From: Pseudomonadota bacterium
GTDB lineage: Bacteria; Myxococcota_A; Polyangia; DRWM01
NCBI GenBank assembly: GCA_043813155.1
Contig: JBDRLK010000004.1
Span: 1-14,112 of the forward strand
Reading direction: 5' to 3'
Length of the DNA stretch: 14,112 bases
Below the pieces are notes generated by a model, which saw nothing but the letters and a program-made list of their open reading frames with translations, was not told where the DNA came from and searched no databases. Below are positions 1,406-14,112 of the stretch, one piece after another; within the stretch, counting starts at the first letter, position 1, and every line of letters starts with the position of its first letter. Position numbers and translations under genes: made by a program.

Positions 1406-2844
1406 TGGCAGGAGAATTAGGACTCGATATCGGCTGGATTCTGCTCATTGTAGCGTTCGTCATCGTCGTTTTCGGGACGATCATCACCTTCCTGAGCCGT
1501 TACAAGCGCTGCCCGCCCGACAAGATCATGGTCATCTACGGCAAGGTGGGCAAGGGCGCGGCGGGCAAACGGTCGGCGCGGTGCATTCACGGAGGCGCGG
1601 CGTTCATCGTGCCCGTGGCCCAGGACTTCCAGTTCCTTGACCTCACGCCCATCACCATGGACATCGATCTTCGCGGCGCCCTGTCCCAGCAGAACATCCG
1701 CATCAACGTCCCCTCGACCTTCACCGTGGGCATCTCCACCGAGGAGGGGATCATGGAGAACGCGGCCGAAAGGCTCCTCGGCATTCCCATCGAGCAGATC
1801 AAGAGGATCACCGAGGACATCATCTTCGGACAGACCCGTGTGGTCATCGCCACGATGCGGATCGAGGAGATCATCGCCAACCGGGACAAGTTCGTGGAGA
1901 ACATCATGAACGGCGTGGAGGTGGAGCTCAAGAAGATCGGCCTGAAGCTCATCAACGTCAACGTCAAGGACATCATCGACGAGTCGAGCTATATCGAGGC
2001 GCTGGGCAAGGAGGCCGCGGCGCGGGCCATCAACGAGGCCAAGAAGGCCGTGGCCGAGCGCAACAGGGACGGCGAGATCGGCAGGGCAGAGGCCGAAAGG
2101 GAGCAGCGCATAAGGGTGGCGGCGGCCAACGCGGCCGCTGTGGACGGCGAGAACACGGCCCGCATCAACGTCGCAAACTCCAATGCGAACCGGCGAGAGA
2201 AGGAGGCCGATGCGGAGCGCAAGGGCGTGGCGGCCGAGAGGGTGCAGGCGGCCCGGGCCTTCGAGGAGTCCTACCAGGCGGAGCAGAAGGCCGAGACCCA
2301 GCGCGCCGAGCGCGAGCGCGCCACCCAGATGGCCGACATCATCATCCCGACCCAGATATCAAAACAAAGAGTCGAGATCGACGCGGACGCGGCCGCCGAG
2401 AAGCTGAGGCGCGAGGCCAAGGGCGAGGCCGACGCCATCTATCTCAAGCTGGACGCCCAGGCCCGCGGAAACAAGGAGATCCTCACGAGAAAGGCCGAGG
2501 GCCTCAAGGCCATCGTCGAATCCGCCGGCGGCCAGGCGCAGCTGGCCTCTCTGCTCATGATCACCGAGAAGCTGCCCGAGCTGGTGACTGCCCAGGTCGA
2601 TGCGATCAAGAACCTGAAGATCGACAAGGTCGTGGTCTGGGACAACATGGGCGGCGGAAAGGGCGACCCCACGACGGCCCGTTTCTTCTCCGGCATGCTC
2701 CAGTCCCTGCCGCCCCTGCAGAATCTCTTCGAGATGGCTGGCATGACACTGCCGGGATTTCTCGATGTGAAGGACAAGGCCGGCGCAGCCGGCCAGGCCG
2801 GCCAGCCGGGCGGGCCCACCGCCCCCGGCCCCTCCCGTTCCTAG
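1405..2844 (+). CDS. Flotillin / SPFH (band-7) family protein (YqiK/FloT-like) with an N-terminal membrane anchor and a long Ala/Glu/Arg-rich coiled-coil (EA-repeat) region.
   Basis: N-terminal TM: GWILLIVAFVIVVFGTIITFL. SPFH core motifs: ...IMVIYGK...GGAAFIVPVAQ...VKDIIDESSYIEALGKEAAARAINEAKKAVAERNRDGEIGRAEAERE.... The C-terminal half is EA-rich coiled coil. GGAG lies 9 nt upstream of ATG 1405. The gene shares a frame with, and is translationally coupled to, the NfeD gene; a membrane NfeD immediately upstream of a flotillin is the classic two-gene arrangement. Confidence 0.9.
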   Translation: MAGELGLDIGWILLIVAFVIVVFGTIITFLSRYKRCPPDKIMVIYGKVGKGAAGKRSARCIHGGAAFIVPVAQDFQFLDLTPITMDIDLRGALSQQNIRINVPSTFTVGISTEEGIMENAAERLLGIPIEQIKRITEDIIFGQTRVVIATMRIEEIIANRDKFVENIMNGVEVELKKIGLKLINVNVKDIIDESSYIEALGKEAAARAINEAKKAVAERNRDGEIGRAEAEREQRIRVAAANAAAVDGENTARINVANSNANRREKEADAERKGVAAERVQAARAFEESYQAEQKAETQRAERERATQMADIIIPTQISKQRVEIDADAAAEKLRREAKGEADAIYLKLDAQARGNKEILTRKAEGLKAIVESAGGQAQLASLLMITEKLPELVTAQVDAIKNLKIDKVVVWDNMGGGKGDPTTARFFSGMLQSLPPLQNLFEMAGMTLPGFLDVKDKAGAAGQAGQPGGPTAPGPSRS

Positions 2845-2855
2845 TTCTGGAGATA

Positions 2856-4385
2856 TCACCGGGACCTGCGGCGGGCAAGGACCACCAGGACAACGGCAAC
2901 CATCCACAGGAAGCCAACCGATGAAACCGGACCTTGCGGCGACATGGTGCATGCGCACCCCGACCCGACTTCCAAGGACGGCGGCAGGGAAAAATCAGCT
3001 TCGGCATCCCCGCCGGCATCGACGTCAACATCAGGCTCAGCCATGTCGTCAACGTCAGGCTCAGCCACGTCGTCAACATCAGGCTCAGCCACGTCATCAA
3101 CATCAGCGTTCACCCAGTCCTCGGTCATGGCGTCCATGCCGGCATCGGACGCTCCGTCGGGCTCGGCGTCCGGTTCCGTGTAGGCGTCATCATCAGGTTC
3201 GGGCCCGCTGCCGGGCGTGACGCGGATCGCGTCGAAAGCGAGCTGGATATTCTCGGAGACCGGCTCGCCCGTGTTGTCGTTGAGAAGCACGAACTGCTCG
3301 CCGCTCGCGGCGAAGTCGAATGAGCCGATCGGGTTCCATCCATCCACAGCGGTCTGGTCGACGCGCACCGAATCGGTCGTCTCCCCGTGCCGTATATCGT
3401 AGAGGGCCCTGCGGCTTTGCGCGAAACCACCGTCCGTGTAGGCCTCGAGCATGTATCTCCCGGGCGTGGAAAAGATGATGTTCCAGCGGCCCCAGTCATC
3501 CGGCGAAGAGTCGGACGTGGCCGTGGTCCAGATCAAGTGCCCGTCCCATCCCGCGGATTCGTGGTGCCAGTACATTGGCGTTCCGCCTTTCACGAAGCAC
3601 GGCCCGCGCTCGTCCAGGATCCCGCCCTCGGGCGGAAGCGGATCACATGTCGGCAACGGCCCGCCGCCGTCATTGTGTGAGACGAGCGTCATCCTCCTGA
3701 CGAGGTCCTCGTAACCGTCGAACGGTTCGGGCACCACCGCGTTGCCGCCGTACGAGCCGCCGGACCCCGAGCCGCCGACGGTCGAGTCCCGGTGCATTGC
3801 AAAGTGCAGGTGCGTCCCGAAATAAGGACACGAGAGCTCCCCGTTGCACGAGTCGCCCAGCTCGCCGACCTCGGTGCCCATCACCACACTGTCTTCCTCT
3901 GACACATAGACGTCATTCAGGTGGCAGTACATCGTGACGTAACGATGGCCGTCAGCGTTGTAGTCGTGCAAGATGACTACGCGCAGGCCGTAGTTGGACC
4001 AACCGGACGTTGCCCATCCTGCCAGGAGCACCGTGCCGGAGGCCACGGCAAGGACCGGCTGCCCAAGGCCATCGGACGGGTAGTCGGGGAGGGTAAAGTC
4101 GAGAGCATAGTAGTCGTTGGCGTGGCTCGTGTCGTCCGTTGTGGCATGCAGTGACGAACCGCCCGACGGTGAGTAGCCGGCGGAGATATAAACGTTCTCA
4201 CCTGCGAGGAATGGAAGGCGGATCTCGAAGTCAACAGGGAGACTCACGCCTCCCTCGATCGGGGTTGTGATCGCTTCGGCGCCTTGCGTCGCCAGCAGCG
4301 CCGAGACCAGCACTGCCGCCCGGAACCCGGCATGCGCGCTCCCGCGGAGCAGGCGCCCGCGCCGCATGTTCAATCTTCCCTGCAT
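2856..4385 (-). CDS. Secreted M23 (LytM/lysostaphin-type) zinc metallopeptidase with a signal peptide, a C-terminal beta-rich domain, an acidic DVDDVAEP tandem-repeat linker, and a MYXO-CTERM-like Cys-containing sorting tail.
   Basis: Signal peptide: MQGRLNMRRGRLLRGSAHAGFRAAVLVSALLATQGAEA. M23 motifs: SHANDYYALDF (HxxxD-like) ... VVILHDYNADGHRYVTMYCHL ... GTHLHFAMH (HxH). C-terminus: ...GSGCACTMSPQGPVSSVGFLWMVAVVLVVLARRRSR, a Cys motif plus TM helix plus basic tail. The RBS is aaaGGAGtccggccATG, giving a 7-nt spacing. Confidence 0.85.
   Translation of the reverse strand: MQGRLNMRRGRLLRGSAHAGFRAAVLVSALLATQGAEAITTPIEGGVSLPVDFEIRLPFLAGENVYISAGYSPSGGSSLHATTDDTSHANDYYALDFTLPDYPSDGLGQPVLAVASGTVLLAGWATSGWSNYGLRVVILHDYNADGHRYVTMYCHLNDVYVSEEDSVVMGTEVGELGDSCNGELSCPYFGTHLHFAMHRDSTVGGSGSGGSYGGNAVVPEPFDGYEDLVRRMTLVSHNDGGGPLPTCDPLPPEGGILDERGPCFVKGGTPMYWHHESAGWDGHLIWTTATSDSSPDDWGRWNIIFSTPGRYMLEAYTDGGFAQSRRALYDIRHGETTDSVRVDQTAVDGWNPIGSFDFAASGEQFVLLNDNTGEPVSENIQLAFDAIRVTPGSGPEPDDDAYTEPDAEPDGASDAGMDAMTEDWVNADVDDVAEPDVDDVAEPDVDDMAEPDVDVDAGGDAEADFSLPPSLEVGSGCACTMSPQGPVSSVGFLWMVAVVLVVLARRRSR
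3021..3108. repeat. About 3.5 tandem copies of a 24-nt unit, gtcgtcaacgtcaggctcagccac on the + strand. They encode (D-V-D-D-V/M-A-E-P)n in the M23 peptidase on the - strand.
   Basis: Near-identical 24-mers sit at 3021-3044, 3045-3068 and 3069-3092, with a degenerate copy at 3093-3116. The repeat is in-frame and coding, so it is not CRISPR-like: there are no spacers. Confidence 0.85.
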
Positions 4386-4630: not shown

Positions 4631-6973
4631 TCAAACGAAAATGTTGGCGTCGCCCTTGGACAGGACGATGACGGTAGTCGGGAGCGACTTGAACACGTCG
4701 TGCATGTCGTGCAGGTAGGCGGCGAAATTCAGGGCGTTGCTCTCGGACATGCCGACGAAAACGAGGTCGGCCCGGGCCGACATCCGTTTCATGATCTCGC
4801 GCGGCGGGTCGCAGGACGCGATGACGTCCACGGCCATGGACAGCCTGGCTTTTTTAAGCATGAGCTTGAGGAGGCTGCTTTCCTTTCCGGCGTCCTCGTC
4901 ATCGCCAACGATCCTCAGGAGCCGGACCATGGCCCCCTGCCATGCCCGGTTCAATGTCATGAGGTAGGCGAAGAGGGCCATGAGAGAGCCGTTCCTCTCG
5001 CCCCTCCACCAGACGTCGATGATCCTCTTTCGCCGCTTCCCCTTGACGAAATCCCCCGGTTTCAGGATGGCCAGGTTCAGGCCGTGCGCCCACATGAGGT
5101 GCACCTGCCGGGCCAGCTGCGCCCTCTCCCCCGGGTCGGCGCCCGGCGGTATGGCGATCATGCCCGTGTTCGGCCGCAGGGGGCCGAGGGAATAGCACTG
5201 CAGGAACGATGAAAACGTCTCGAGATAATCGCTGCCCACGACGGCCTCGCCGTAGGCCTGGATCCCCTGGGCGGCCAGGAAATTTTTAAGCTCCCCCAGC
5301 CTGGCCCTGCGCATCTCGAGCCGCTCGCCCTGGTCCATGCCGGGCTCGGCCGAGATGTCCGCGACCGAAAGGAGGCCCCTGCGGCCCTCGATCAGGGCCG
5401 CTATGGTCACGAGCTGAAGCTCGCTCGTCGGGTTGTCGGCCACGGCCGTGAGGATGGGCCGCCAGTTTTTCGGGTGAACGGGCGTGTCGCCCAGAACGAG
5501 CAGGTTGTCCCTTATCTTTGAAAACACGTACCCGCGCTTCGCGTCGCCCCACTCGGTCTTGATGTTCTTGCGCGTCAGGTACATCCAGATCGCGCCCGTG
5601 ACGGCCATGGCGATGAGGGCCGCTGTCTCATTGATCTTGATCATGGCCACGACGCAGCCCACCGTGCCCGTGATCGAGGTGAACTTGTTGGACCACTTGA
5701 ACCCTGGACGGAAGGAGGGGTTTGCGCTGACCGACTCCACGAAAGCGGAAAGGTTGATCATGCCGTAGGCGATGAGGAAAAACATGGAGATGACCTCGGC
5801 CACGGCGTTCAGGTCGCCCGCCCAGATGATGCAGGCCGCCAGGATGAACGTGGCCACCGTGGCGCGGCGCGGCTCGTTGTCCACGCCGTGCCCCTTGGCG
5901 AAAAAATTGAGAAAGCCAAGCAGGCGGTCCCGGGCCATGGACTGGAGGATGCGCGGCGCGCCCAGGAAGCTTCCCAGGGCCGAGGAAAGCGTTGCCGTGA
6001 ACACGCCCAGGATCACGAGCGGGCCGAAGAGGCTCATCTGCTGCAGCGCGCCGAAGGGATCCGCGATGAGGGCCTTCCTGCCGACCGAGCCGGCCATGAG
6101 CCAGATCTGCAGAAGATAGATCGCGGCGGTGAAGGCCACGGCGAAAATAGTGCCCAGGGGTATGGCGCGGCTGGGGTTCTTCAGGTCCCCCGACATGTTG
6201 GCGCCCGCCGTGATGCCGGTCACGGCCGGGAAGAAAATCGCGAAGACCGCCCAGAAGGACATGTCCTTTGTAAAGGCGCTGCCCTTGTTCGCCTCGAGAA
6301 TGGCCTCGTCATAGCTGAGAAACCCTCCGACGATGAAGCTGAGGATGGAGATCACCAGGATGGCGAGAACGATGTACTGGGCCTTGATGGCGATGCCCGC
6401 GCCCTTGAAGGTCAGGACGAACAGGCCGAAGACGACCAGGGTCGAAAGGACCTGCGCCGCGTGCAGCGTCTGCCACAGGGCCCACAGGTCCACGTCGAAA
6501 AACGTGTAGGCCTTGAGAAGCGGGGCGACGATGCTCTCCAGCGCCTCGGTAAACCCGATGACGTAGAACGCCACGCCCACCGCCTGGGCCAGGAAAAGCG
6601 TGATGCCGATGGACCCGCCGAAGTTCAGGCCCAGGACCCTGGAAATCATGAAGTAGACGCCGCCGACCTTGACGTCCGTGTTCGTGGCAATGGTGGATAT
6701 GGAAAAGCTCGTGAGGATCGTGATCATCTTGCTGATGCCCAGGATGACCAGGGCCAGCCACAGGCCGCTCTCGCCCACGACGAACCCCGTGCGCATGAAC
6801 ATGATCACGCCCAGGATCGTCAGCACGCTGGGCGTGAAAACGCCCCCGAAGGTCCCGAACCTTCCCCTGGTCTCCTCCTCCTCGTCCGGGAGTTCGTCCA
6901 GGGAGGTCCTTACCCTGCATTCCCTTTCGCTTTCATCCCGGTCCGGCTGACCATTGTGTTCATTCCCGCTCAT
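4631..6973 (-). CDS. Cation-chloride cotransporter (SLC12/CCC family, APC superfamily) homologue with 12-TM permease core and full SLC12-type C-terminal cytoplasmic domain
   Basis: N-terminus: MSGNEHNGQPDRDE.... TM1 region: FGTFGGVFTPSVLTILGVIMFMRTGFVVGESG (SLC12 signature GTxxGVFxP...NIxGVxxFxR). C-terminal domain: ...HPKNWRPILTAV... (compare KNWRPQLLVL), ...IDVWWRGERNGSLMALFAYLM... (compare IDVWWIVHDGG) and ...TVIVLSKGDANIFV (compare VLLVRGGG.EV). The start was chosen at ATG 6973, preceded by GGAAG; the 1117-aa six-frame ORF is an upstream artefact with no stop. Confidence 0.9.
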   Translation of the reverse strand: MSGNEHNGQPDRDESERECRVRTSLDELPDEEEETRGRFGTFGGVFTPSVLTILGVIMFMRTGFVVGESGLWLALVILGISKMITILTSFSISTIATNTDVKVGGVYFMISRVLGLNFGGSIGITLFLAQAVGVAFYVIGFTEALESIVAPLLKAYTFFDVDLWALWQTLHAAQVLSTLVVFGLFVLTFKGAGIAIKAQYIVLAILVISILSFIVGGFLSYDEAILEANKGSAFTKDMSFWAVFAIFFPAVTGITAGANMSGDLKNPSRAIPLGTIFAVAFTAAIYLLQIWLMAGSVGRKALIADPFGALQQMSLFGPLVILGVFTATLSSALGSFLGAPRILQSMARDRLLGFLNFFAKGHGVDNEPRRATVATFILAACIIWAGDLNAVAEVISMFFLIAYGMINLSAFVESVSANPSFRPGFKWSNKFTSITGTVGCVVAMIKINETAALIAMAVTGAIWMYLTRKNIKTEWGDAKRGYVFSKIRDNLLVLGDTPVHPKNWRPILTAVADNPTSELQLVTIAALIEGRRGLLSVADISAEPGMDQGERLEMRRARLGELKNFLAAQGIQAYGEAVVGSDYLETFSSFLQCYSLGPLRPNTGMIAIPPGADPGERAQLARQVHLMWAHGLNLAILKPGDFVKGKRRKRIIDVWWRGERNGSLMALFAYLMTLNRAWQGAMVRLLRIVGDDEDAGKESSLLKLMLKKARLSMAVDVIASCDPPREIMKRMSARADLVFVGMSESNALNFAAYLHDMHDVFKSLPTTVIVLSKGDANIFV

Positions 6974-7090
6974 GCCTGCTTCCAACGTGGCGCAAATATT
7001 GTATAAACAAAATTCAAGGGCAAAAAAAGGGGTAGGCGAAAAAAATTTACCTCTTGCACTCTTCACGTAAAAGTGCCATGAATTTTCAGG
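6974..7090. promoter_or_regulatory. AT-rich divergent intergenic region between the CCC transporter (-) and the hdrA-like cluster (+); presumably carries both promoters.
   Basis: The region reads ...ttgtataaacaaaattcaagggcaaaaaaaggggtaggcgaaaaaaatttacctcttgcactcttcacgtaaaagtgcc. A candidate -35/-10 pair, TTTACC-16-TAAAAG, lies just upstream of ATG 7091, implying a very short leader and no clear SD. Confidence 0.3.
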
Positions 7091-7978
7091 ATGGGTCCGC
7101 ACGAAAACCACGACAAGGCCGGGAAAACTTTCCGGCCCGCCATTGGCGTCTACGTGTGCCACTGCGGCCAGAATATCGCCTCCAGGGTCGACATCGGGGC
7201 GGTCGTTTCCTTTGCGGCCGGGCTCCCGTCCGTCAGCGCCTCCCGTGAGTACAAGTTCATGTGCTCGGACCCCGGCCAGAACCTGATCAAGGAAGACTTG
7301 AGGAGCGGGCTTGTCAACAGGGTGCTCGTGGCATCCTGCACACCGCTCATGCACGAGACAACGTTCAGGAAAGCGGGTGAGGACGGCGGCATCAATCCGT
7401 TCCTGGTCCAGATGGCGAACATCAGGGAGCACGTCTCCTGGGTCACGGACGACACGGACAAGGCCACCCTCAAGGCCAAGGCCCTGATTTCCGCGGGCGT
7501 TGCCAGGCTCAGGCGGCACGTCCCCCTGGAAAGAAGAAGGCTGCCCGTGCGCCAGGAAGTCGTGATCATCGGCGCCGGCGTGGCCGGCCTGTCCGCGGCC
7601 CTGGCCATAGCCGAGGCGGGGAAAAAAGTCTTCCTCGTCGAAAAGGAGCCCTCCATCGGCGGCCACATGGGATATTTCGACAAGACGTTCCCCACGCTCG
7701 ACTGCGCGGCCTGCACCCTGACGCCGAGAATGGTCAGGGCGGGAAGCCATCCGAACATTGAAATCCTGTCCATGAGCGAAGTGACCGGAATTTCCGGAAG
7801 AACGGGGGACTACACGCTGAAGCTGAAAAAAAGGCCAAGGTATATCGACGAAGAAAAATGCAACGGCTGCGGCGCGTGCTGGAGCAGCTGCCCCGCGGTC
7901 AGGGTGCCTGCCCGCCGGGTCATAACGATCGGCGGAAAGCCAATAGGTGAATCGACGATCGAGCGAACCTGCAAATGA
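7091..7978 (+). CDS. hdrA: HdrA-like heterodisulfide-reductase subunit A, N-terminal portion. It holds the N-terminal Cys-cluster domain, the first half of the FAD/thioredoxin-reductase-like domain, and the first CxxCxxCxxxCP motif of the inserted ferredoxin domain.
   Basis: Motifs follow the order of a canonical HdrA N-terminal half: IGVYVCHCGQNIA...YKFMCSDPGQNLI...VLVASCTPLMHETTFRK...NPFLVQMANIREHVSW (N-domain); VVIIGAGVAGLSAALAIAEAGKKVFLVEKEPSIGGHM (FAD Rossmann); TFPTLDCAACTLTPRM; YIDEEKCNGCGACWSSCP. The gene ends in TGA overlapping the next ATG (ATGA). Confidence 0.85.
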   Translation: MGPHENHDKAGKTFRPAIGVYVCHCGQNIASRVDIGAVVSFAAGLPSVSASREYKFMCSDPGQNLIKEDLRSGLVNRVLVASCTPLMHETTFRKAGEDGGINPFLVQMANIREHVSWVTDDTDKATLKAKALISAGVARLRRHVPLERRRLPVRQEVVIIGAGVAGLSAALAIAEAGKKVFLVEKEPSIGGHMGYFDKTFPTLDCAACTLTPRMVRAGSHPNIEILSMSEVTGISGRTGDYTLKLKKRPRYIDEEKCNGCGACWSSCPAVRVPARRVITIGGKPIGESTIERTCK

Positions 7979-9747
7979 GCGCAACGGTTGACATAGTTGA
8001 CATAGAGGTGGGCGGCAGGGCCATCGCCGCGCCCGAGGGCGCGATGCTGCTGCCCGTGCTCCTGAAAGAGGGCTTCGATGTTCCCCACCTGTGCTTCCAT
8101 GAAAAGCTCAAGCCCTATGCGGCCTGCCGCCTCTGTCTCGTGGAGGTCGAAAAAGGCGGCCGCAGGAAGATCGCCACGTCGTGCAACCATCCCGTCATGG
8201 CCGGGCTCAAGGTTTTCCTGGACACGGACGAAATCCTGGAGCAGCGTAAAAATCTTCTCGAGACCATGCTCGCCCAGGCGCCGGACTCGGAGCAGGTCCG
8301 CCGCTATGCCGCGCGCTACGGCGTGCATGACACGGCGCTGAAAAAACAGGAAGGCAAGTGCATCATGTGCGGCCTGTGCGTCAGGGCCTGCGAGGAAATC
8401 GCGGGCGCCCATGCCATCACGCTCGCCGGGCGGGGCAACTTCAAGACGGTCGATTCCCCCTACGGCGATGTCACGCCCCGATGCATTGCCTGCGCCGCGT
8501 GCGCAACCGTCTGCCCCACGGGCCACATCGAGGTGCGCGACGCAAGGGGAAGGGCCGTTGCGCACGACGAGCTCGTCGTGGGCCCGCAATCGGCCGTGTT
8601 CACACCCACGCGCCAGTCCGTGCCGGCCGTGGCCGTCATCGACCCTGAAAGCTGCATCCACATGCTCACTGGCGGATGCGGGATCTGCCGCGACGCCTGC
8701 GAGCGGGAGGCCATAGATTTCGACCAGAAGGAAGAGACCTCCGAGCTGAAAGCCGGCGCGGTCATCGTGGCCACGGGCTTCGAGCCGTTCGACCCCTCCG
8801 GGCTGCCGCAGTTCGGCTACGGGGTTTTCAACAACGTCATCACCGCGCCGCAGGTGGAAAAGATGTCCAACGCGTCGGGCCCCACGGACGGAAAGATCCT
8901 CACGGCCGAGGGACGCAGTCCCGGGAGCGTGGCCATTGTCCATTGCATCGGTTCGCGGGACAAGAACACGAACGAGCACTGCAGCAAGGTCTGCTGCATG
9001 GTCTCGCTGAAGCTGGCCCATCTCATCCACGAGAAAACGGGCGCGTACGTTACGAATTTCTACATCGACATCCGGGCGGGCGGCAAGGGCTACGAGGAGT
9101 TTTATGCAACAGTAGCGGCGCACGGGGTAAGGTTCATCAGGGGAAAGGTCTCCGAGGTGAGGGCGGGAAGCGAGGACGACCCCGAGGAGAGCGGGAAGCT
9201 CGTCGTGGAGGCTGAAGACACGCTCATCTGCAGGCCGGTTCAGCTTCCCGTCGACATGGTCGTGCTCGCGGTCGGGCTCGAAGCGCGCAGGGACGCCGGC
9301 AGCCTGTCCGGCGCCCTGAAAATCGCCAGGAGCAGGGACGGTTTTTTCATGGAGCGGCACATCAAGCTTGCCCCGGCGCACACGCTCGAGGACGGCATTT
9401 TCATCGCCGGCGCGGCCCAGGGGCCCAAGGACATCCCCGAAAGCGTGTCCCACGGAGCGAACGCCGGGCTCGAGGCGCTCAGTCTCCTGGACAGGGGGGA
9501 GATCGAGCTGGAAGCCAGCATCTCGACCATCGACCCTGACTTCTGCACGGGATGCGGCGTTTGCGAGGCCATCTGTCCTGCCGGCGCAATCTGCGTTGAC
9601 GAAAAGAAGAAAATCGCAAGAGTCGACGAAACAGGCTGCAAGGGCTGCGGCCTGTGCGCGGCGGCGTGCCCGGCGCAGGTTGCGGACCAGAGGGGTTTTA
9701 CGGAGCGGCAGATATGGGCGGAAATCGACGGGCTCCTGATAGTGTGA
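7975..9747 (+). CDS. hdrA: Fusion protein: an N-terminal NuoG/HydA/FdhA-like [2Fe-2S]+2x[4Fe-4S] module, followed by the C-terminal portion of HdrA. The HdrA part holds the second cluster motif of the inserted ferredoxin domain, the second half of the FAD domain with the CxGSRD...C..CC cluster, and the C-terminal 2x[4Fe-4S] ferredoxin domain.
   Basis: N-terminal module: MSATVDIVDIEVGGRAIAAPEGAM...HLCFHEKLKPYAACRLCLVEVEKGGRRKIATSC (Cx10CxxCx15C plant-type 2Fe-2S), then CIMCGLCVRAC and CIACAACATVCPTG. HdrA-derived part: ESCIHMLTGGCGICRDACEREAIDFD; AVIVATGFEPFDP; VAIVHCIGSRDKNTNEHCSKVCCM; FYIDIRAGGKGYEEFY; SRDGFFMERHIKL; IFIAGAAQGPKDIPESV; CTGCGVCEAICPAG...CKGCGLCAAACPA. This region matches a canonical HdrA C-terminal half. 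Confidence 0.85.
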   Translation: MSATVDIVDIEVGGRAIAAPEGAMLLPVLLKEGFDVPHLCFHEKLKPYAACRLCLVEVEKGGRRKIATSCNHPVMAGLKVFLDTDEILEQRKNLLETMLAQAPDSEQVRRYAARYGVHDTALKKQEGKCIMCGLCVRACEEIAGAHAITLAGRGNFKTVDSPYGDVTPRCIACAACATVCPTGHIEVRDARGRAVAHDELVVGPQSAVFTPTRQSVPAVAVIDPESCIHMLTGGCGICRDACEREAIDFDQKEETSELKAGAVIVATGFEPFDPSGLPQFGYGVFNNVITAPQVEKMSNASGPTDGKILTAEGRSPGSVAIVHCIGSRDKNTNEHCSKVCCMVSLKLAHLIHEKTGAYVTNFYIDIRAGGKGYEEFYATVAAHGVRFIRGKVSEVRAGSEDDPEESGKLVVEAEDTLICRPVQLPVDMVVLAVGLEARRDAGSLSGALKIARSRDGFFMERHIKLAPAHTLEDGIFIAGAAQGPKDIPESVSHGANAGLEALSLLDRGEIELEASISTIDPDFCTGCGVCEAICPAGAICVDEKKKIARVDETGCKGCGLCAAACPAQVADQRGFTERQIWAEIDGLLIV

Positions 9748-9756
9748 GCAAGCCCT

Positions 9757-10902
9757 ATGACATGGAGCGATGATACAACAATGACCGGCTATAACCTTCC
9801 ATACGACGAATGTGCCGGCGACGGCCTGCGCACCGTGCTCGAGAAGCTTTTCGAGACCGGGGCCGTCTCTGCAGCCATCGTGCCGCTGGAGAGCAGGGGA
9901 AAGACCAGGCTCGATCTCTGCCTCGTCGGCGCTCGCGGCGCGCTCGAGAAGGCCAGGCCGATAGCGCCCTTTTTCTTCGGCAACAGGGCGCTCGGCGTTT
10001 CCAGGCTCACGCGCCTGGGCGAGCTCCCGGAACGGGCCATCGCGATTCTCAGGCCGTGCGAGGCCAGATCGCTCGTCGAGCTCAGGAAGCTCAAGCAGGC
10101 CGCCTCGGACAACCTGATCATTCTCTGCGTGGATTGCGCCGGCACGGTTTCCGCCGCTGATTACAGGGAGAAGATGGCGAGTGGCTCGGGGTTCCACCAG
10201 CAGCTGGCCCATGCCTTTCGCCAGGGACAGGACCTTGAGGGAGCGCGTGAAGCCTGCTCCATCTGCCGGTATCCCGCCCTGGACAATGAAATCGACATCC
10301 ACGCGGGCCTCTTCGGCCAGGAGGGCTGCGTGCTGCTGCTGCCGGTTTCGGAAAAGGGAGCCGGCCTGCTCGGGGGCCTCGGCATGCAGGAGGCCGGGCA
10401 GCCGGAGCTGGATGCGCGAAAGGAGGCCCTGAAAAAAATCAGGGAGCACAGGAAAGCCAGGCAAGGGGAATGGCTTGCCGCCCTGCCCTTTGCTTCGGGG
10501 GGGGCAAAAGCGCTGGCAGCGCATTTCGATTCCTGCGAGCAGTGCCGGGCGTGCTCCGAGACCTGTCCCGTCTGCTACTGCAAGCAGTGCTACTTCAAGA
10601 TGGCGTCCATGGAAACAGAGCCGGCGAACGTGTTTCTCAAGGCGGCGCACCTGGAGAAAGTGCCCCTGCCCTCCTCGCCTCTTTTCTTTCACCTTGGCAG
10701 GATGACGCACATGGCCCACTCGTGCACCGGCTGCGGCGCCTGCACCGAGGCCTGCCCGTCGGGCATCGACGTGGCAAAAGCGTTCATTGCCGCCGCCGGC
10801 GAGGTCCAGAAAACGTTTGACTACGAGCCCGGCAGAAGCACGGACGATAAACTGCCGGTAACGATTTTCAAGGAAGACGAACTGGAGGATGAAGTAAGGT
10901 GA
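9757..10902 (+). CDS. Iron-sulfur flavoprotein: an FrhB/FdhB-family (F420-hydrogenase beta-like) N-terminal domain fused to a C-terminal HdrC/GlpC-like di-[4Fe-4S] domain.
   Basis: N-terminal half, ...GDGLRTVLEKLFETGAVSAAIV...APFFFGNRA...IAILRPCEARSLVELRK...LIILCVDCAG, parallels the FrhB order Q-DGG...EGAVV / KYTFSPN / AIPCQTMGIR / LLVGIYCMENF. C-terminal half: CEQCRACSETCPV and CTGCGACTEACPSG motifs spaced ~54 aa apart, as in HdrC. The start is ambiguous: ATG 9757 has no SD, and ATG 9781 lies 13 nt after GGAG. The stop TGA overlaps the GTG of mvhD. Confidence 0.7.
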   Translation: MTWSDDTTMTGYNLPYDECAGDGLRTVLEKLFETGAVSAAIVPLESRGKTRLDLCLVGARGALEKARPIAPFFFGNRALGVSRLTRLGELPERAIAILRPCEARSLVELRKLKQAASDNLIILCVDCAGTVSAADYREKMASGSGFHQQLAHAFRQGQDLEGAREACSICRYPALDNEIDIHAGLFGQEGCVLLLPVSEKGAGLLGGLGMQEAGQPELDARKEALKKIREHRKARQGEWLAALPFASGGAKALAAHFDSCEQCRACSETCPVCYCKQCYFKMASMETEPANVFLKAAHLEKVPLPSSPLFFHLGRMTHMAHSCTGCGACTEACPSGIDVAKAFIAAAGEVQKTFDYEPGRSTDDKLPVTIFKEDELEDEVR

Positions 10903-11309
10903 CCGAATTCAATCCAAACATCATTGCCTTCCTGTGCAACTGGTGCTCCTACACCGGGGCCGACCTGGCGGGAACCTCGAGGCTCAAGATTCCCGACTCC
11001 ATCAAGGTCGTCAGGGTCATGTGCTCCTCGAGGGTCGACCCGGCGTTCATCATCAAGGCGCTGCAGGAGGGGGCGGACGGGGTCCTGGTCGGGGGATGCC
11101 ACCCCGGCGACTGCCATTACCAGAAGGGAAATTACTATGCGCGAAGGAGAATCGCCGCTTTGAGAAGCATACTGGGAGCCCTGGGCCTCGAGCCGGAGCG
11201 GGTGCGCCTCGAATGGATCTCGGCGTCCGAAGGCCCCCGTTTTTCACAGGTCACGGGCGAGTTCACGGACGCCGTCAGGCGGATGGGGCCCAGCCCCCTG
11301 CGTGTGTAG
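10899..11309 (+). CDS. mvhD: MvhD (methyl-viologen-reducing hydrogenase delta subunit) family electron-transfer protein.
   Basis: Hallmark Cys pattern: IIAFLCNWCSY...VVRVMCSSRVDP...GVLVGGCHPGDCHY. GTG start with GGAGG 9 nt upstream. A 4-bp GTGA overlap with the preceding gene indicates translational coupling. Confidence 0.85.
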   Translation: MTEFNPNIIAFLCNWCSYTGADLAGTSRLKIPDSIKVVRVMCSSRVDPAFIIKALQEGADGVLVGGCHPGDCHYQKGNYYARRRIAALRSILGALGLEPERVRLEWISASEGPRFSQVTGEFTDAVRRMGPSPLRV

Positions 11310-11342: not shown

Positions 11343-13649
11343 ATGAATGACAACACACCATATTTCCCGGCGGTCGTCATAGGCGGCGGCGTGTGCGGCC
11401 TGCGCGCGGCCTTCGACCTGAAGGACCTGGGCGTGCCCTGCCTCGTCATCGAGAAGAGCGACGCGGCGGGCGGAAAGCTCCTGAGGCTCGAGCGATGGTT
11501 CACCGAGGATTCCTGCGGGCTGTGCCGCATCCTTGACAGCGAGAAGCGCCCTCTTCTTCCCCGGGACGAAGATGAAATCCTGTGCCTCCGCCGCAACGTG
11601 GCGCGGCGCGACATCGACCTGTGGACGGGCTCGCGGGTTGTCGGCGTGAGCCGCACCGGCGAAGGGCTCACCCTTCAAATCGAACGTAACGGCAAAGCGG
11701 CGCAGCAGGTCTCATGCGACGCGGCCATCGTTGCCGCGGGCATGGACGATATCGACATGCATTACCTGTCCCACTTGAGGGCGGGCCTGGATCCCGACGT
11801 GGTTTCGGGGGAGCGGTTCGAGGAGATGATCGCGCGCGCCGCGCAAAAACCCCTGCGCAGACCGTCGGACGGCCGCCGGGTTGAAAAAATCGCTTTCATC
11901 GGGTGCGCCGGGAGCAGGGACGCCGCGCACCCGTGGTGCTCCTCCGCCTGCTGCGGCTACCTGGTGAAAGAAATCAGCCTGCTGGCCGGCGTGGACGGGG
12001 GCATCAAGCCCACCCTCTTCTGCATGGACGTCAGGCTCCATGCCAAGGGCATGCACCCGTACGGTGAAAAGGCGCTGAGCCGCACTCGCGTGGTCAGGGC
12101 CAGGGCCGGCAGCCTGGAGAGGAAGCGCAGCGGCATGCTGGCGGTCCGGGCTGTGAGCGATGAAGCGCTGGAGGAAATCGAGGTCGACCTGGCGGTCCTT
12201 TCAGGCGGCGTGAAACCGGGCAGCGCTGATCTCTTTTCCATGCTCGGCGTGAACACGGACCGGCACGGTTTTCCGGCAGCGCAGGCAGCCGTCAATCCCA
12301 CGGTTACATCGAATCCCTCTGTTTTCGTTGCCGGGGCGGCCAAGACGCCGTGCGATATAGCATCCAGCGTAATGGAAGCCAGGGCGGCAGCGGCCGCTGT
12401 TTTTGATCGGCTGGCGGAAATCAAACCGGACATCACCGGCTTTGCGGGCAAGGGCGGAAGGGCGCTTGTCATCGGCGGGGGCGCGGCAGGGCTCGCCGCG
12501 GCAAAGACCCTGGCCGCCGCGGGCCACGAGGTCACTGTCCTGGAAAAGCAGAATGCGGCCGGCGGCATGAGCACGGACATTCGCATCGACCCGGCCGGCA
12601 GGGACGCGGCAGGCCTCATTGAAGCGCTTGCGGCGGAGGTTGCCGCTGATGACAGGGTCCGTATCCTGAGCAACACGGAGGCAATCGCGATCAATGGAAG
12701 GTTGTGTAATTTCAGCGTGTTACATAACAATTCTTCCACTGCACTATCAGGTCATTTCGACACGGTTGTCGTGGCCGCGGGGGCCTCGTTGCACAGGGAC
12801 GAAAGGCTCGATAATGGAAAGATCATCACCCTGAAGCAGATGGAGTCAAAGCTGCATGCCGGCGACGGCGTGGGGGGCGATGTTGTCTTCATTCAGTGCG
12901 CCGGGTCGAGGGACGCCGACCACCCTTACTGCAACGCGGTCTGCTGCCCAAAGGCCCTGGCCCTGGGAATGGAAATACTGAAAAAGGGCCCAAGGGCCTG
13001 GATCCTCTACAGGGACATGATGACCGCGGGCAGGGACGAAGCCCTTTACACCAGGGCGAGAGAGGCGGGAGTCATCTTCGTACGCTACGAGCCGGCACGT
13101 GCGCCGGCCCTCAGCATCGGCGAGGGCGGCGCTGTCCGCGTCGAGGTGGAAGAGACAACACTGGGACGAAAGCTTGTTCTGAGCCCGGAGCTCGTCGTCC
13201 TGTCGTCGGGGATAGATCCTCCGGCCGGGGTTCTCGCGTCCCTGCAGGTCCCGGTCGGCGGCGACGGTTTCGCCGCCGAGGACGACCCGAGATTCAGGCC
13301 GTGCCAGTCGACGAGAAAAGGCATTTACGTGGCCGGCAACGCAAGATACCCGGCAAGCAGCAGCCAGGCCGCGCTCCAGGGTATCTGTGCCGGCATGGGC
13401 GCGTCGATCCTGGGGGGGCTCGCGAGGACGGTGAGCCATGAAGTCGAGCCGTCCCGTACCAGGGAAAAGCTGTGCGCCGCGTGCGCCGTCTGTGTCGACG
13501 CATGCCCGGCAGGGGCCAGGTTCCTGGACAGCGCGATCGAGCCCACGGCACGTGTCGAGGCCCGCCTTTGCCAGGCCTGCGGTCTCTGCGCAGCAGCCTG
13601 CCCTTCCGGCGCCGCCGTCGTCCCGGGAGCACCGCTTCGAGCGCCTTAG
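11343..13649 (+). CDS. Tandem-duplicated HdrA-like flavoprotein: two consecutive FAD/TrxR-like HdrA core domains plus a C-terminal 2x[4Fe-4S] ferredoxin domain. The HdrA N-terminal Cys domain and the inserted ferredoxin domain are absent.
   Basis: Domain 1: AVVIGGGVCGLRAAFDLKDLGVPCLVIEKSDAAGGK ... EDSCGLCRI ... IAFIGCAGSRDAAHPWCSSACCGY ... VFVAGAAKTPCDIASSVMEARAAA. Domain 2: ALVIGGGAAGLAAAKTLAAAGHEVTVLEKQNAAGGM ... VVFIQCAGSRDADHPYCNAVCCPKAL ... IYVAGNARYPASSSQAALQG. C-terminus: CAACAVCVDACPAG ... CQACGLCAAACPSG. Confidence 0.85.
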   Translation: MNDNTPYFPAVVIGGGVCGLRAAFDLKDLGVPCLVIEKSDAAGGKLLRLERWFTEDSCGLCRILDSEKRPLLPRDEDEILCLRRNVARRDIDLWTGSRVVGVSRTGEGLTLQIERNGKAAQQVSCDAAIVAAGMDDIDMHYLSHLRAGLDPDVVSGERFEEMIARAAQKPLRRPSDGRRVEKIAFIGCAGSRDAAHPWCSSACCGYLVKEISLLAGVDGGIKPTLFCMDVRLHAKGMHPYGEKALSRTRVVRARAGSLERKRSGMLAVRAVSDEALEEIEVDLAVLSGGVKPGSADLFSMLGVNTDRHGFPAAQAAVNPTVTSNPSVFVAGAAKTPCDIASSVMEARAAAAAVFDRLAEIKPDITGFAGKGGRALVIGGGAAGLAAAKTLAAAGHEVTVLEKQNAAGGMSTDIRIDPAGRDAAGLIEALAAEVAADDRVRILSNTEAIAINGRLCNFSVLHNNSSTALSGHFDTVVVAAGASLHRDERLDNGKIITLKQMESKLHAGDGVGGDVVFIQCAGSRDADHPYCNAVCCPKALALGMEILKKGPRAWILYRDMMTAGRDEALYTRAREAGVIFVRYEPARAPALSIGEGGAVRVEVEETTLGRKLVLSPELVVLSSGIDPPAGVLASLQVPVGGDGFAAEDDPRFRPCQSTRKGIYVAGNARYPASSSQAALQGICAGMGASILGGLARTVSHEVEPSRTREKLCAACAVCVDACPAGARFLDSAIEPTARVEARLCQACGLCAAACPSGAAVVPGAPLRAP

Positions 13650-13864
13650 GGCGCACTCAACAATAGATTCACATTTCTGGACGCCGATCCATCCCGGCTG
13701 GCTGCGTTGCTGCACCCCGCCACTCGTCGGCGTAGAACGACTACGCCTCCGTCGTGACGGGGACCCCGCGCCTTGCCAGCCGGGCGCCTCGGCGTCCAGA
13801 AAATATCATTGCATGTAATGAGAACATTAGCCCACATTCTGTGAATCTATTGTTGAGTGCGCCC
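13649..13864. mobile_element. MITE-like non-autonomous element (216 bp). It has perfect 25-bp terminal inverted repeats, GGGCGCACTCAACAATAGATTCACA, is flanked by a 3-bp TTA direct duplication, and carries nested internal palindromes.
   Basis: IR-L at 13649-13673 is the exact reverse complement of IR-R at 13840-13864. TTA occurs at 13646-13648 and 13865-13867. Internal inverted repeats: tttctggacgcc (13674-13685) / ggcgtccagaaa (13791-13802), and cccggctggc (13693-13702) / gccagccggg (13775-13784). There is no ORF of meaningful size inside. The element abuts the TAG stop of the hdrA-like gene at 13647-13649. Confidence 0.55.
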
Positions 13865-14112
13865 TTAGTACAACGCCCCGCAAGTTAGGGACCAGCCTTG
13901 TAGCGAGGCCGCGGATGTGGAGCCGGATCGCGAGCGCGCCCGCAGCGCCCGATGGAGGCGTAGCAGGGCTACATCGACGAGGGCGCGAGGACGAAAGCCG
14001 CAAAGTGCACCCCACGGAAGCCATTTCGTCTGGAACGATTTTCCGCTTCCGCAGGGACCCCGCCTCATTGCCCACAGGCGCGGCCGCAGTAGAGTGGTGG
14101 TCCCTGATTTGC

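Follow-up and report, generated by a model that had tools for sequence, protein, structure and literature searches.

Introduction

Electron bifurcation by HdrA-type flavoproteins holds a central place in the energy metabolism of anaerobes. To our knowledge, the donors and acceptors of most bacterial HdrA clusters beyond those of methanogens, acetogens and class II benzoyl-CoA reductase are unassigned. This report concerns a five-gene HdrA operon on a contig of 14,112 bp (hereafter the window, which is the whole contig) from an NCBI metagenome-assembled genome labelled 'Pseudomonadota bacterium', and above all its fdhB-like gene, whose product of 373 amino acids (aa) is referred to as the target. 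The closest described systems are the Fdh-Hdr-Fmd and Elp-Hdr complexes of methanogens, in which the FdhB and ElpB subunits carry flavin adenine dinucleotide (FAD) and four [4Fe-4S] clusters. In Elp-Hdr, electrons pass from FAD through EB1,2,4 to the N-terminal clusters of HdrA, then to the [2Fe-2S] cluster of ElpC and on to the bifurcating FAD (PMC12350162).

Related genes have also been described outside methanogens. In Desulfobacterium autotrophicum, fdhB was reported in 2009 in hdrA/hdrL/mvhD loci with or without fdhA (PMC2702500), an HdrBCA-MvhD-FdhBA cluster has been proposed in Chloroflexi and Desulfobacula (PMC5736913), and ANME-1 genomes contain HdrA-FdhB clusters that lack FdhA (PMC9012536). 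The literature searched contained no biochemical study of any bacterial member, and nothing usable on links between FdhB-like proteins, FlxB and sulfhydrogenases.

The target is an FdhB/ElpB-type subunit in a bacterium, with a remodelled F420 site and without an FdhA/ElpA or HdrBC partner; the occurrence of fdhB in hdrA/mvhD loci as such has been known since 2009. With a probability of roughly 0.7, the target would form, together with MvhD, an electron-delivering arm on HdrA.

Homology to FdhB and ElpB

Sequence evidence places the target, a bacterial protein, in the FdhB/ElpB branch of the FrhB superfamily. The best matches of a single-sequence search of the PDB are the F420-dependent formate dehydrogenase (Fdh) beta subunits of Fdh-Hdr-Fmd together with ElpB (E=1.6e-18, 1.2e-16 and 3.4e-15). 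A profile built from 60 relatives aligns with FdhB/ElpB from end to end, with positions 10-358 lying on residues 17-377 (E=1e-55, 8e-47 and 2e-43). The archaeal sequences used for comparison were reconstructed from HMMER alignment output and are missing their first 13-16 residues. On their own, the 88 N-terminal residues reach 12.6-17 bits with FdhB/ElpB, where the best of 10,000 shuffles reaches 7.5, and residues 89-205 score 45-61 bits, where the best of 10,000 shuffles reaches 13.4. FrhB itself gives no sequence signal above the shuffles.

Structure prediction is consistent with this placement. The AlphaFold2 model of the target (pLDDT 88, pTM 0.89) contains the FrhB-type alpha/beta core fold, and Foldseek matches it to 7bkb_E and 8rvu_E with TM values of 0.73 and 0.72. 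Colinearity with FdhB/ElpB extends over the full length and includes both the dicluster domain and a CPxCxCxxC triad.

The Pfam models give a different picture. The original prediction had read the FrhB/FdhB order of conserved blocks in the N-terminal ~230 aa and had made the assignment depend on a significant Pfam FrhB_FdhB match. No such match was obtained, and by that measure the assignment formally falls. Only when the N-terminal 253 aa were scanned alone did PF04432 (FrhB_FdhB_C) register, with 16.4 bits (E 0.0086), below its cut-off of 23.3, and PF04422 (FrhB_FdhB_N), which covers the FAD pyrophosphate and adenine loops, gave no match. Among the 60 relatives, PF04432 is found in 55 at E<=0.1 (best 4e-12), and PF04422 appears weakly in two (best E 0.014). 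The archaeal FdhB/ElpB used as positive controls score 56-85 bits with PF04422 and 131-147 bits with PF04432. The proposed block order therefore stands only in part: superfamily membership is supported by the family profile and the fold, and is not supported by the Pfam FrhB models. The predicted 'PC(E/Q)' block is present as ILRPCEARSLVEL at 10045-10083, and the HdrC/GlpC-type C-terminus is matched by Fer4_8 (PF13183) with 37 bits against a cut-off of 27.

Cysteine motifs and predicted clusters

Fifteen cysteines of the target are invariant or nearly so across the 60 relatives. Four of them lie in the core: C93 (10057), C119 (10135), C159 (10255) and C162 (10264) are invariant and align with the PC, NCGG and CxxC motifs of FdhB/ElpB, as well as with C134 of FrhB, so that the ligands expected for the core [4Fe-4S] cluster are in place. 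The two ferredoxin-type CxxCxxCxxxCP motifs recognised in the original prediction are found at residues 252-263 (C252/255/258/262; 10534-10569) and 315-326 (C315/318/321/325; 10723-10758), with 51 residues separating them. A third group, CPvCyCkqC (C265/C267/C270; 10573-10590), had been overlooked. It is likewise invariant in the 60 relatives, and the CPxCxCxxC triad also occurs in archaeal FdhB and ElpB.

An additional cysteine, C11, is a candidate fourth ligand beside the CxCxxC triad. It is invariant in the target clade (10/10), and its alignment column holds a cysteine in just 8 of the 60 family members, each of which belongs to that clade. Ligands for three to four predicted clusters are present, and the 16 cysteines that include C11 could suffice for four [4Fe-4S] clusters, the same count as in FdhB/ElpB.

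The flavin and F420 site

In FrhB, FAD is bound by the loops 24-QDGG, 73-GTKYT (G73-T77) and 132-IYCMENF (I132-F138), and the F420 channel runs between the body of the protein and a subdomain of one helix and three strands (residues 128-188) (PMC3930138). Two of these three loops are altered in the target (Table 1), and the second proline of the replaced loop 2 (P63) is conserved in 58 of the 60 relatives. In the bacterial family at large, loop 1 varies freely and no glycine is conserved in it. The distance from the second core cysteine (DCxG) to the CxxC motif is 40 residues in the target (family median 40, range 23-46), compared with 59-63 in FrhB, FdhB and ElpB. About 20 residues of the hairpin that forms the lid of the F420 channel are deleted, and the access channel is not retained in the form seen in FrhB.

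Since the archaeal F420 hydride site is not conserved, F420 would be an unlikely substrate of the target. That the protein is a flavoprotein at all, as had been assumed, is not established by these features: loop 1 is partly kept, loop 2 reads PIAPF, and the lid is shorter by ~20 residues. The question raised alongside that assumption, namely what reacts at the flavin site, is a legitimate one.

Operon and related loci

The operon consists, in order, of an N-terminal piece of hdrA (hdrA-N), a C-terminal piece (hdrA-C), the fdhB-like gene, mvhD and a double hdrA gene. It contains neither fdhA nor hdrBC, no gene with a CCG domain (HdrB) was found in it, and the junctions among its five genes measure at most 33 nt. 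The window MvhD is canonical, and its GTG start overlaps the stop codon of the fdhB-like gene by 4 nt (GTGA), which suggests that the two genes are likely translationally coupled. This overlap and the flanking HdrA genes, the decisive context of the target, had not been used in the original prediction.

The HdrA protein is split inside its inserted ferredoxin domain, and the same split is found in the related loci L001 and L002. The N-terminal piece carries the Cys-cluster domain and the FAD Rossmann motif, along with the first half of the interrupted ferredoxin domain; its gene overlaps that of the C-terminal piece by 4 nt (ATGA). The C-terminal piece opens with a NuoG/HoxU/BamI-like module of one [2Fe-2S] and two [4Fe-4S] clusters (about 7975-8560), and its best PDB match is 9mqx_A, an 'NADH:ubiquinone oxidoreductase chain G-like protein' (E=2e-36). 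The double HdrA consists of two tandem TrxR-like HdrA cores followed by a ferredoxin domain. Only four database proteins match it over its full length, and its identity to the three others among them is 85, 57 and 54%. Its analogue in class II benzoyl-CoA reductase is BamE, which has been described as a 'fused HdrA dimer' (preprint 10.64898/2026.04.10.717634).

Table 1. Positions and supporting evidence for the fdhB-like gene, its predicted domains and motifs, and the other operon genes
Feature	Position in window	Strand	Evidence or comparison
fdhB/elpB-like gene, 373 aa	9781..10902	+	homology to FdhB/ElpB
FrhB-type alpha/beta core, aa 1-205	9781..10395	+	four core Cys; core-only profile scores
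C11 codon ('DEC'), candidate 16th cluster ligand	9811..9813	+	aligned to Cys of archaeal 'GECGG'
C-terminal helical dicluster domain, aa 249-345	10525..10815	+	Fer4_8; 11 Cys invariant or nearly so
FAD loop 1			FrhB QDGG; FdhB/ElpB ECGG; target ECAG(DG), one Gly kept
FAD loop 2			FrhB GTKYT; FdhB/ElpB GSLHC; target PIAPF, replaced; family PLAPV, P(L/I)AP(V/F)
FAD loop 3			FrhB IYCMENF; FdhB/ElpB VNCGGSV; target VDCAGTV, kept
hdrA N-terminal piece, 295 aa	7091..7978	+	NCBIfam HdrA2 positions 2-258, E=3e-100
hdrA C-terminal piece, 590 aa	7975..9747	+	HdrA2 positions 240-639, E=2e-124; Fer2_4
mvhD, [2Fe-2S] adaptor	10899..11309	+	PF02662 E=9e-55; 5odc_D E=5e-49; ElpC 8rvu_F E=9e-48
Double hdrA, 768 aa	11343..13649	+	two FAD Rossmann motifs (GxGxxG); two CxGSRD..CxxxCC; C-terminal 2x[4Fe-4S]

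The window was compared with eight related loci (nine loci in all). Besides L001 and L002 these are six loci, L011 and L013 among them: one each in Pseudodesulfovibrio, Desulfonema, Latescibacteria and Aerophobetes, and two on metagenomic contigs, of which one has only part of the cassette. The fdhB-like gene adjoins mvhD in all nine, and each has a large HdrA or HdrL gene nearby. The 4-nt overlap between the fdhB-like gene and mvhD is shared by the window and four of the other eight loci (L001, L002, L011 and L013). The complete cassette of five genes is found again in L001 (87% identity) and L002 (47%), where the genes that flank it are different. A molybdopterin-binding fdhA is found in none of the nine loci, and a truncated FdhA/ElpA is likewise absent from the window and the eight related loci. 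Some of the related loci contain hdrC and hdrB, which are separate from the fdhB-like gene in Pseudodesulfovibrio and L013.

Two of the loci contain more than one pair. The Latescibacteria locus (L011, 3631-9682) has the order hdrA-mvhD-fdhBlike-fdhBlike-mvhD, with two pairs in a single cluster, and the Aerophobetes locus (L012, 92-8660) has mvhD-fdhBlike-Fer4-hdrL(1480 aa)-mvhD-fdhBlike(319 aa). These double pairs suggest that FdhB-like protein and MvhD form a reusable connector module.

Smaller differences distinguish the closest loci from the window. In L001, the gap between hdrA-C and the fdhB-like gene (7682-7748) is 67 nt long, against 33 nt in the window, and holds a GC-rich palindromic insert, ggcggggctaaagccccgcc, that the window lacks. 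In L002, a class-I pyridine-nucleotide disulfide reductase gene (1891-3351; Pyr_redox_2 and Pyr_redox_dim, 486 aa) lies directly 5' of hdrA-N. The gene is absent from the window and from L001, and it may hint at a thiol/disulfide substrate, a hint that is not conserved.

At 50% identity, the family comprises 151 representatives at E<=1e-30 and 471 at E<=1e-10. The target clade is rare and divergent within it, with one such representative at 84% identity and the next at 41%. A scan of contigs with a profile from the close-clade alignment yielded no more than five matches, all of them distant and partial, in Desulfovibrionaceae, Bdellovibrionales and Thermoproteota. Database entries label family members as 'Coenzyme F420 hydrogenase/dehydrogenase beta subunit C-terminal domain' or 'formate dehydrogenase subunit beta'.

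Possible roles of the target

The changed FAD loops, the deleted lid and the failed Pfam models make it most likely that the target acts as an Fe-S electron-relay arm that docks with MvhD on HdrA. Target and MvhD would constitute a mobile arm docking on the N-terminal domain of HdrA, and electrons would flow from the cluster chain of the target to the [2Fe-2S] cluster of MvhD and from there to the HdrA flavin, as in Fdh-Hdr-Fmd and Elp-Hdr. In the window, the arm would probably couple the split HdrA with the BamE-like double HdrA. As to the target itself, the balance leans slightly toward a protein that serves mainly as an Fe-S relay, its flavin pocket being lost or strongly remodelled.

Several observations weigh against this picture. 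Docking is deduced only from homology and gene order. Loop 1 of the target clade (EC.G[DE][AG].R) still resembles the archaeal ECGGAVT, and loop 3 (DCxGT) and a D..G..G motif are retained; together with the highly conserved new loop 2, this likeness makes a modified flavin pocket possible. In addition, no recognisable module for NAD(P)H, formate, H2 or disulfide is encoded in the five-gene operon. If the target were a pure relay, the complex would have no evident place for a substrate; this favours the retention of some hydride site, perhaps in the target.

A wider proposal, tentative and held with clearly less confidence than the arm itself, is that the Hdr-associated FdhB-like proteins of bacteria, those of the target clade above all, represent F420-independent descendants of FdhB/ElpB in which the hydride site of the FrhB core was lost or re-purposed. 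With MvhD they would then form a universal coupler of two different HdrA-type modules, in the window as part of a self-contained five-subunit complex with three HdrA cores (the split HdrA with its BamI-like insert and the BamE-like fused dimer) and without HdrBC. If true, HdrA-type modules coupled in series would be known from a second case besides class II benzoyl-CoA reductase.

A different possibility is that the FrhB core keeps FAD in a reshaped pocket and reacts with NAD(P)H, the target being the hydride entry or exit of the five-subunit complex. The operon lacks a module of the GltD/NuoF type for NAD(P)H, whereas in Desulfovibrionales, Desulfonema and Aerophobetes the partner of the FdhB-like gene is an HdrL bearing Fer4_20 and Pyr_redox_2. 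Loop 2, although replaced, is highly conserved, and the target clade retains parts of loops 1 and 3. However, an NAD(P)H site is without precedent at an FrhB-type site, loop 1 is free to vary in the wider family, and a protein interface would explain the conserved loop 2 just as well. An NAD(P)H site is considered unlikely, though the lack of any other hydride module in the operon leaves it plausible.

A more improbable alternative is an ElpB-like F420H2 oxidase, in which FAD is kept and reduced F420 or another deazaflavin from the host feeds HdrA bifurcation as in the Elp-Hdr complex of Methanothermobacter. The nearest solved relatives, FdhB and ElpB, are both F420-reactive (PMC12350162), and the catalytic FdhA is absent here as it is in Elp. 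Nevertheless, the PF04422 signature that is strong in the archaeal controls is missing from the target, FAD loop 2 has been replaced, the ~20 residues lost belong to the beta-hairpin domain that walls the F420 channel of FrhB, and the window has no ElpA-like gene.

A true formate dehydrogenase beta subunit, with a molybdo- or tungstopterin FdhA encoded elsewhere and formate oxidation linked to HdrA as in the HdrBCA-MvhD-FdhBA clusters proposed for Chloroflexi and Desulfobacula, is very doubtful. JGI labels relatives as 'formate dehydrogenase subunit beta', and Desulfobacterium autotrophicum has two hdr loci in which fdhA follows fdhB (PMC2702500), an order also seen in Chloroflexi DscP3 (PMC5736913). 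The absence of a molybdopterin gene from all nine loci argues against this role, as does the retention of the cassette without one in three orthologous loci whose flanks differ.

Least credible of all is the reading of the original prediction, a 'hybrid' in which an FrhB flavoprotein and an HdrC-like domain were fused in this lineage alone and stand in for HdrC in an Hdr complex. The C-terminal Fer4_8 is of the HdrC/GlpC domain type, HdrC gives weak matches in the PDB search (E 0.25-1.9) and the operon lacks hdrC, but HdrC works with HdrB, which the operon also lacks, Pseudodesulfovibrio and L013 have hdrC and hdrB as genes of their own beside the FdhB-like one, and the full-length alignment contradicts a lineage-specific fusion because archaeal FdhB/ElpB have the same native architecture of FrhB core, dicluster domain and CxCxxC triad, so that the fusion is ancient and family-wide.

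Coding frame and start codon

The open reading frame (ORF) predicted at 9757..10902 on the forward strand is present and is the coding frame. Its GC content at third codon positions (GC3) is 0.80, and that of the four neighbouring genes is 0.78-0.83. An antisense ORF of 969 aa (7810..10719, reverse strand), which spans hdrA-C and the fdhB-like gene, was rejected as a high-GC shadow ORF; its GC content at first codon positions (GC1) is 0.80, mirroring the GC3 of the sense strand, and it has no Pfam match.

The choice between starts at 9757 and 9781, left ambiguous at first, has been settled in favour of ATG 9781, which is the most likely start; the alternative ATG 9757 is probably not used. This follows from the NCBI start call (9781, with all close orthologues giving 373 aa), from the beginning of 9 of 10 clade members at the residue equivalent to ATG 9781, and from an in-frame stop that the 87%-identical orthologue has 30 nt 5' of its own ATG. 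A GGAG sequence lies 13 nt 5' of 9781, and none is found in front of 9757.

Other features of the window

Terminator-like and promoter-like sites in the window occur at chance level, and Rfam has no match in it. A sigma-54 promoter 5' of hdrA-N, an idea prompted by a sigma-54 activator downstream in orthologous loci, was rejected: the best match (6988-7003) has two mismatches, one of them in the -12 GC, the number of matches equals the chance expectation, and the site is conserved in neither L001 nor L002. The orthologous contigs also bear Ser/Thr kinases together with sigma-54 activators.

A 224-nt element at 13645-13868 begins at the stop codon of the double hdrA gene. It has 29-nt terminal inverted repeats that are 97% complementary and an internal perfect inverted repeat of 14 nt, and it looks like a miniature inverted-repeat transposable element (MITE) or a repetitive extragenic palindromic (REP)-type insertion, with no Rfam match. 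On the reverse strand, an ORF of 1117 aa (4631-7984) is over-extended: its AA_permease/SLC12 match starts from residue 382, and the orthologue in L001 has 781 aa. This transporter gene probably starts at ATG 6974 and is divergent from the hdrA operon. Also on the reverse strand, 2856-4385 encodes a peptidase of the M23 type that has a Golvesin_C domain; its MYXO-CTERM sorting signal stays below the threshold (17.4 bits against 20). Taken with the kinases and activators on the orthologous contigs, this is a hint that the host may be Myxococcota-like and not one of the Pseudomonadota in the strict sense.

Significance

Structures of the FdhB/ElpB-MvhD arm come only from methanogens, yet bacteria probably use it too, with a remodelled F420 pocket and without FdhA/ElpA or HdrBC. 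Databases misname the bacterial family as subunits of F420 or formate dehydrogenases. A gene of this kind that bears the name 'F420 hydrogenase/dehydrogenase beta' or 'formate dehydrogenase beta' is not evidence for F420 or formate metabolism. This annotation caveat, together with an entry point to an uncharacterised HdrA complex, is the main value of the locus. The flavin content and the reductant of the target would give a function to a few hundred protein clusters.

Comparison with known systems

The target differs from HdrC, a Fer4_8 protein of ~185 aa that is paired with HdrB, in that its Fer4_8 domain makes up only the C-terminal third of 373 aa. Similarity to the beta subunit of Pyrococcus furiosus soluble hydrogenase I (9nez_B), a protein of the AsrA/HydB type, is confined in sequence to one Fer4 motif, and membership of the AsrA/HydB/FlxB type is not supported, with PF17179 (Fer4_22) reaching 14.2 bits against a cut-off of 27. 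FlxB and FlxC of FlxABCD-HdrABC are related to the AsrA/HydB type. FrhB (4ci0_C, 9r51_B) has no C-terminal dicluster domain, and its QDGG and GTKYT loops and its channel lid are not kept in the target. The other modules of the FrhB family, namely Fsr, components of F420-reducing carbon monoxide dehydrogenase (CODH) and Fmd, and HCAR, were grouped with FrhB in the comparison.

FdhB of Fdh-Hdr-Fmd (7bkb_E, 9t1s_M) provides the best PDB matches, with the same domain order and cluster motifs. It docks via MvhD on HdrA, and the target is likewise encoded with MvhD and HdrA. However, FdhB pairs with a molybdopterin FdhA and reacts with F420, and neither property is present or supported for the target.

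ElpB of the Elp-Hdr complex of Methanothermobacter marburgensis (8rvu_E) has in common with the target the core cysteines, both CxxCxxCxxxCP motifs and the CPxCxCxxC triad. It also adjoins an MvhD homologue (ElpC), works with HdrA and has no formate-oxidising partner (PMC12350162). The two proteins share only ~20% identity, and ElpB, unlike the target, scores strongly with both PF04422 and PF04432. ElpB has the FAD loops GECGGAVT and GSLHC and a lid hairpin ~20 residues longer than that of the target. Its partners are ElpA and HdrABC, whereas the window operon contains neither ElpA nor HdrBC, and its substrate, F420H2, is an unlikely one for the target.

The bacterial 'FdhB' proteins encoded in the hdrA/hdrL/mvhD loci of Desulfobacterota and Chloroflexi belong to the same family as the target, with 33-41% identity. 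Like the window, these loci set the gene close to mvhD and to large HdrA-type genes, and fdhA is often missing from them. Specific to the target clade are the cysteine at position 11 and the combination of a split HdrA with a fused double HdrA in place of HdrL/HdrBC.

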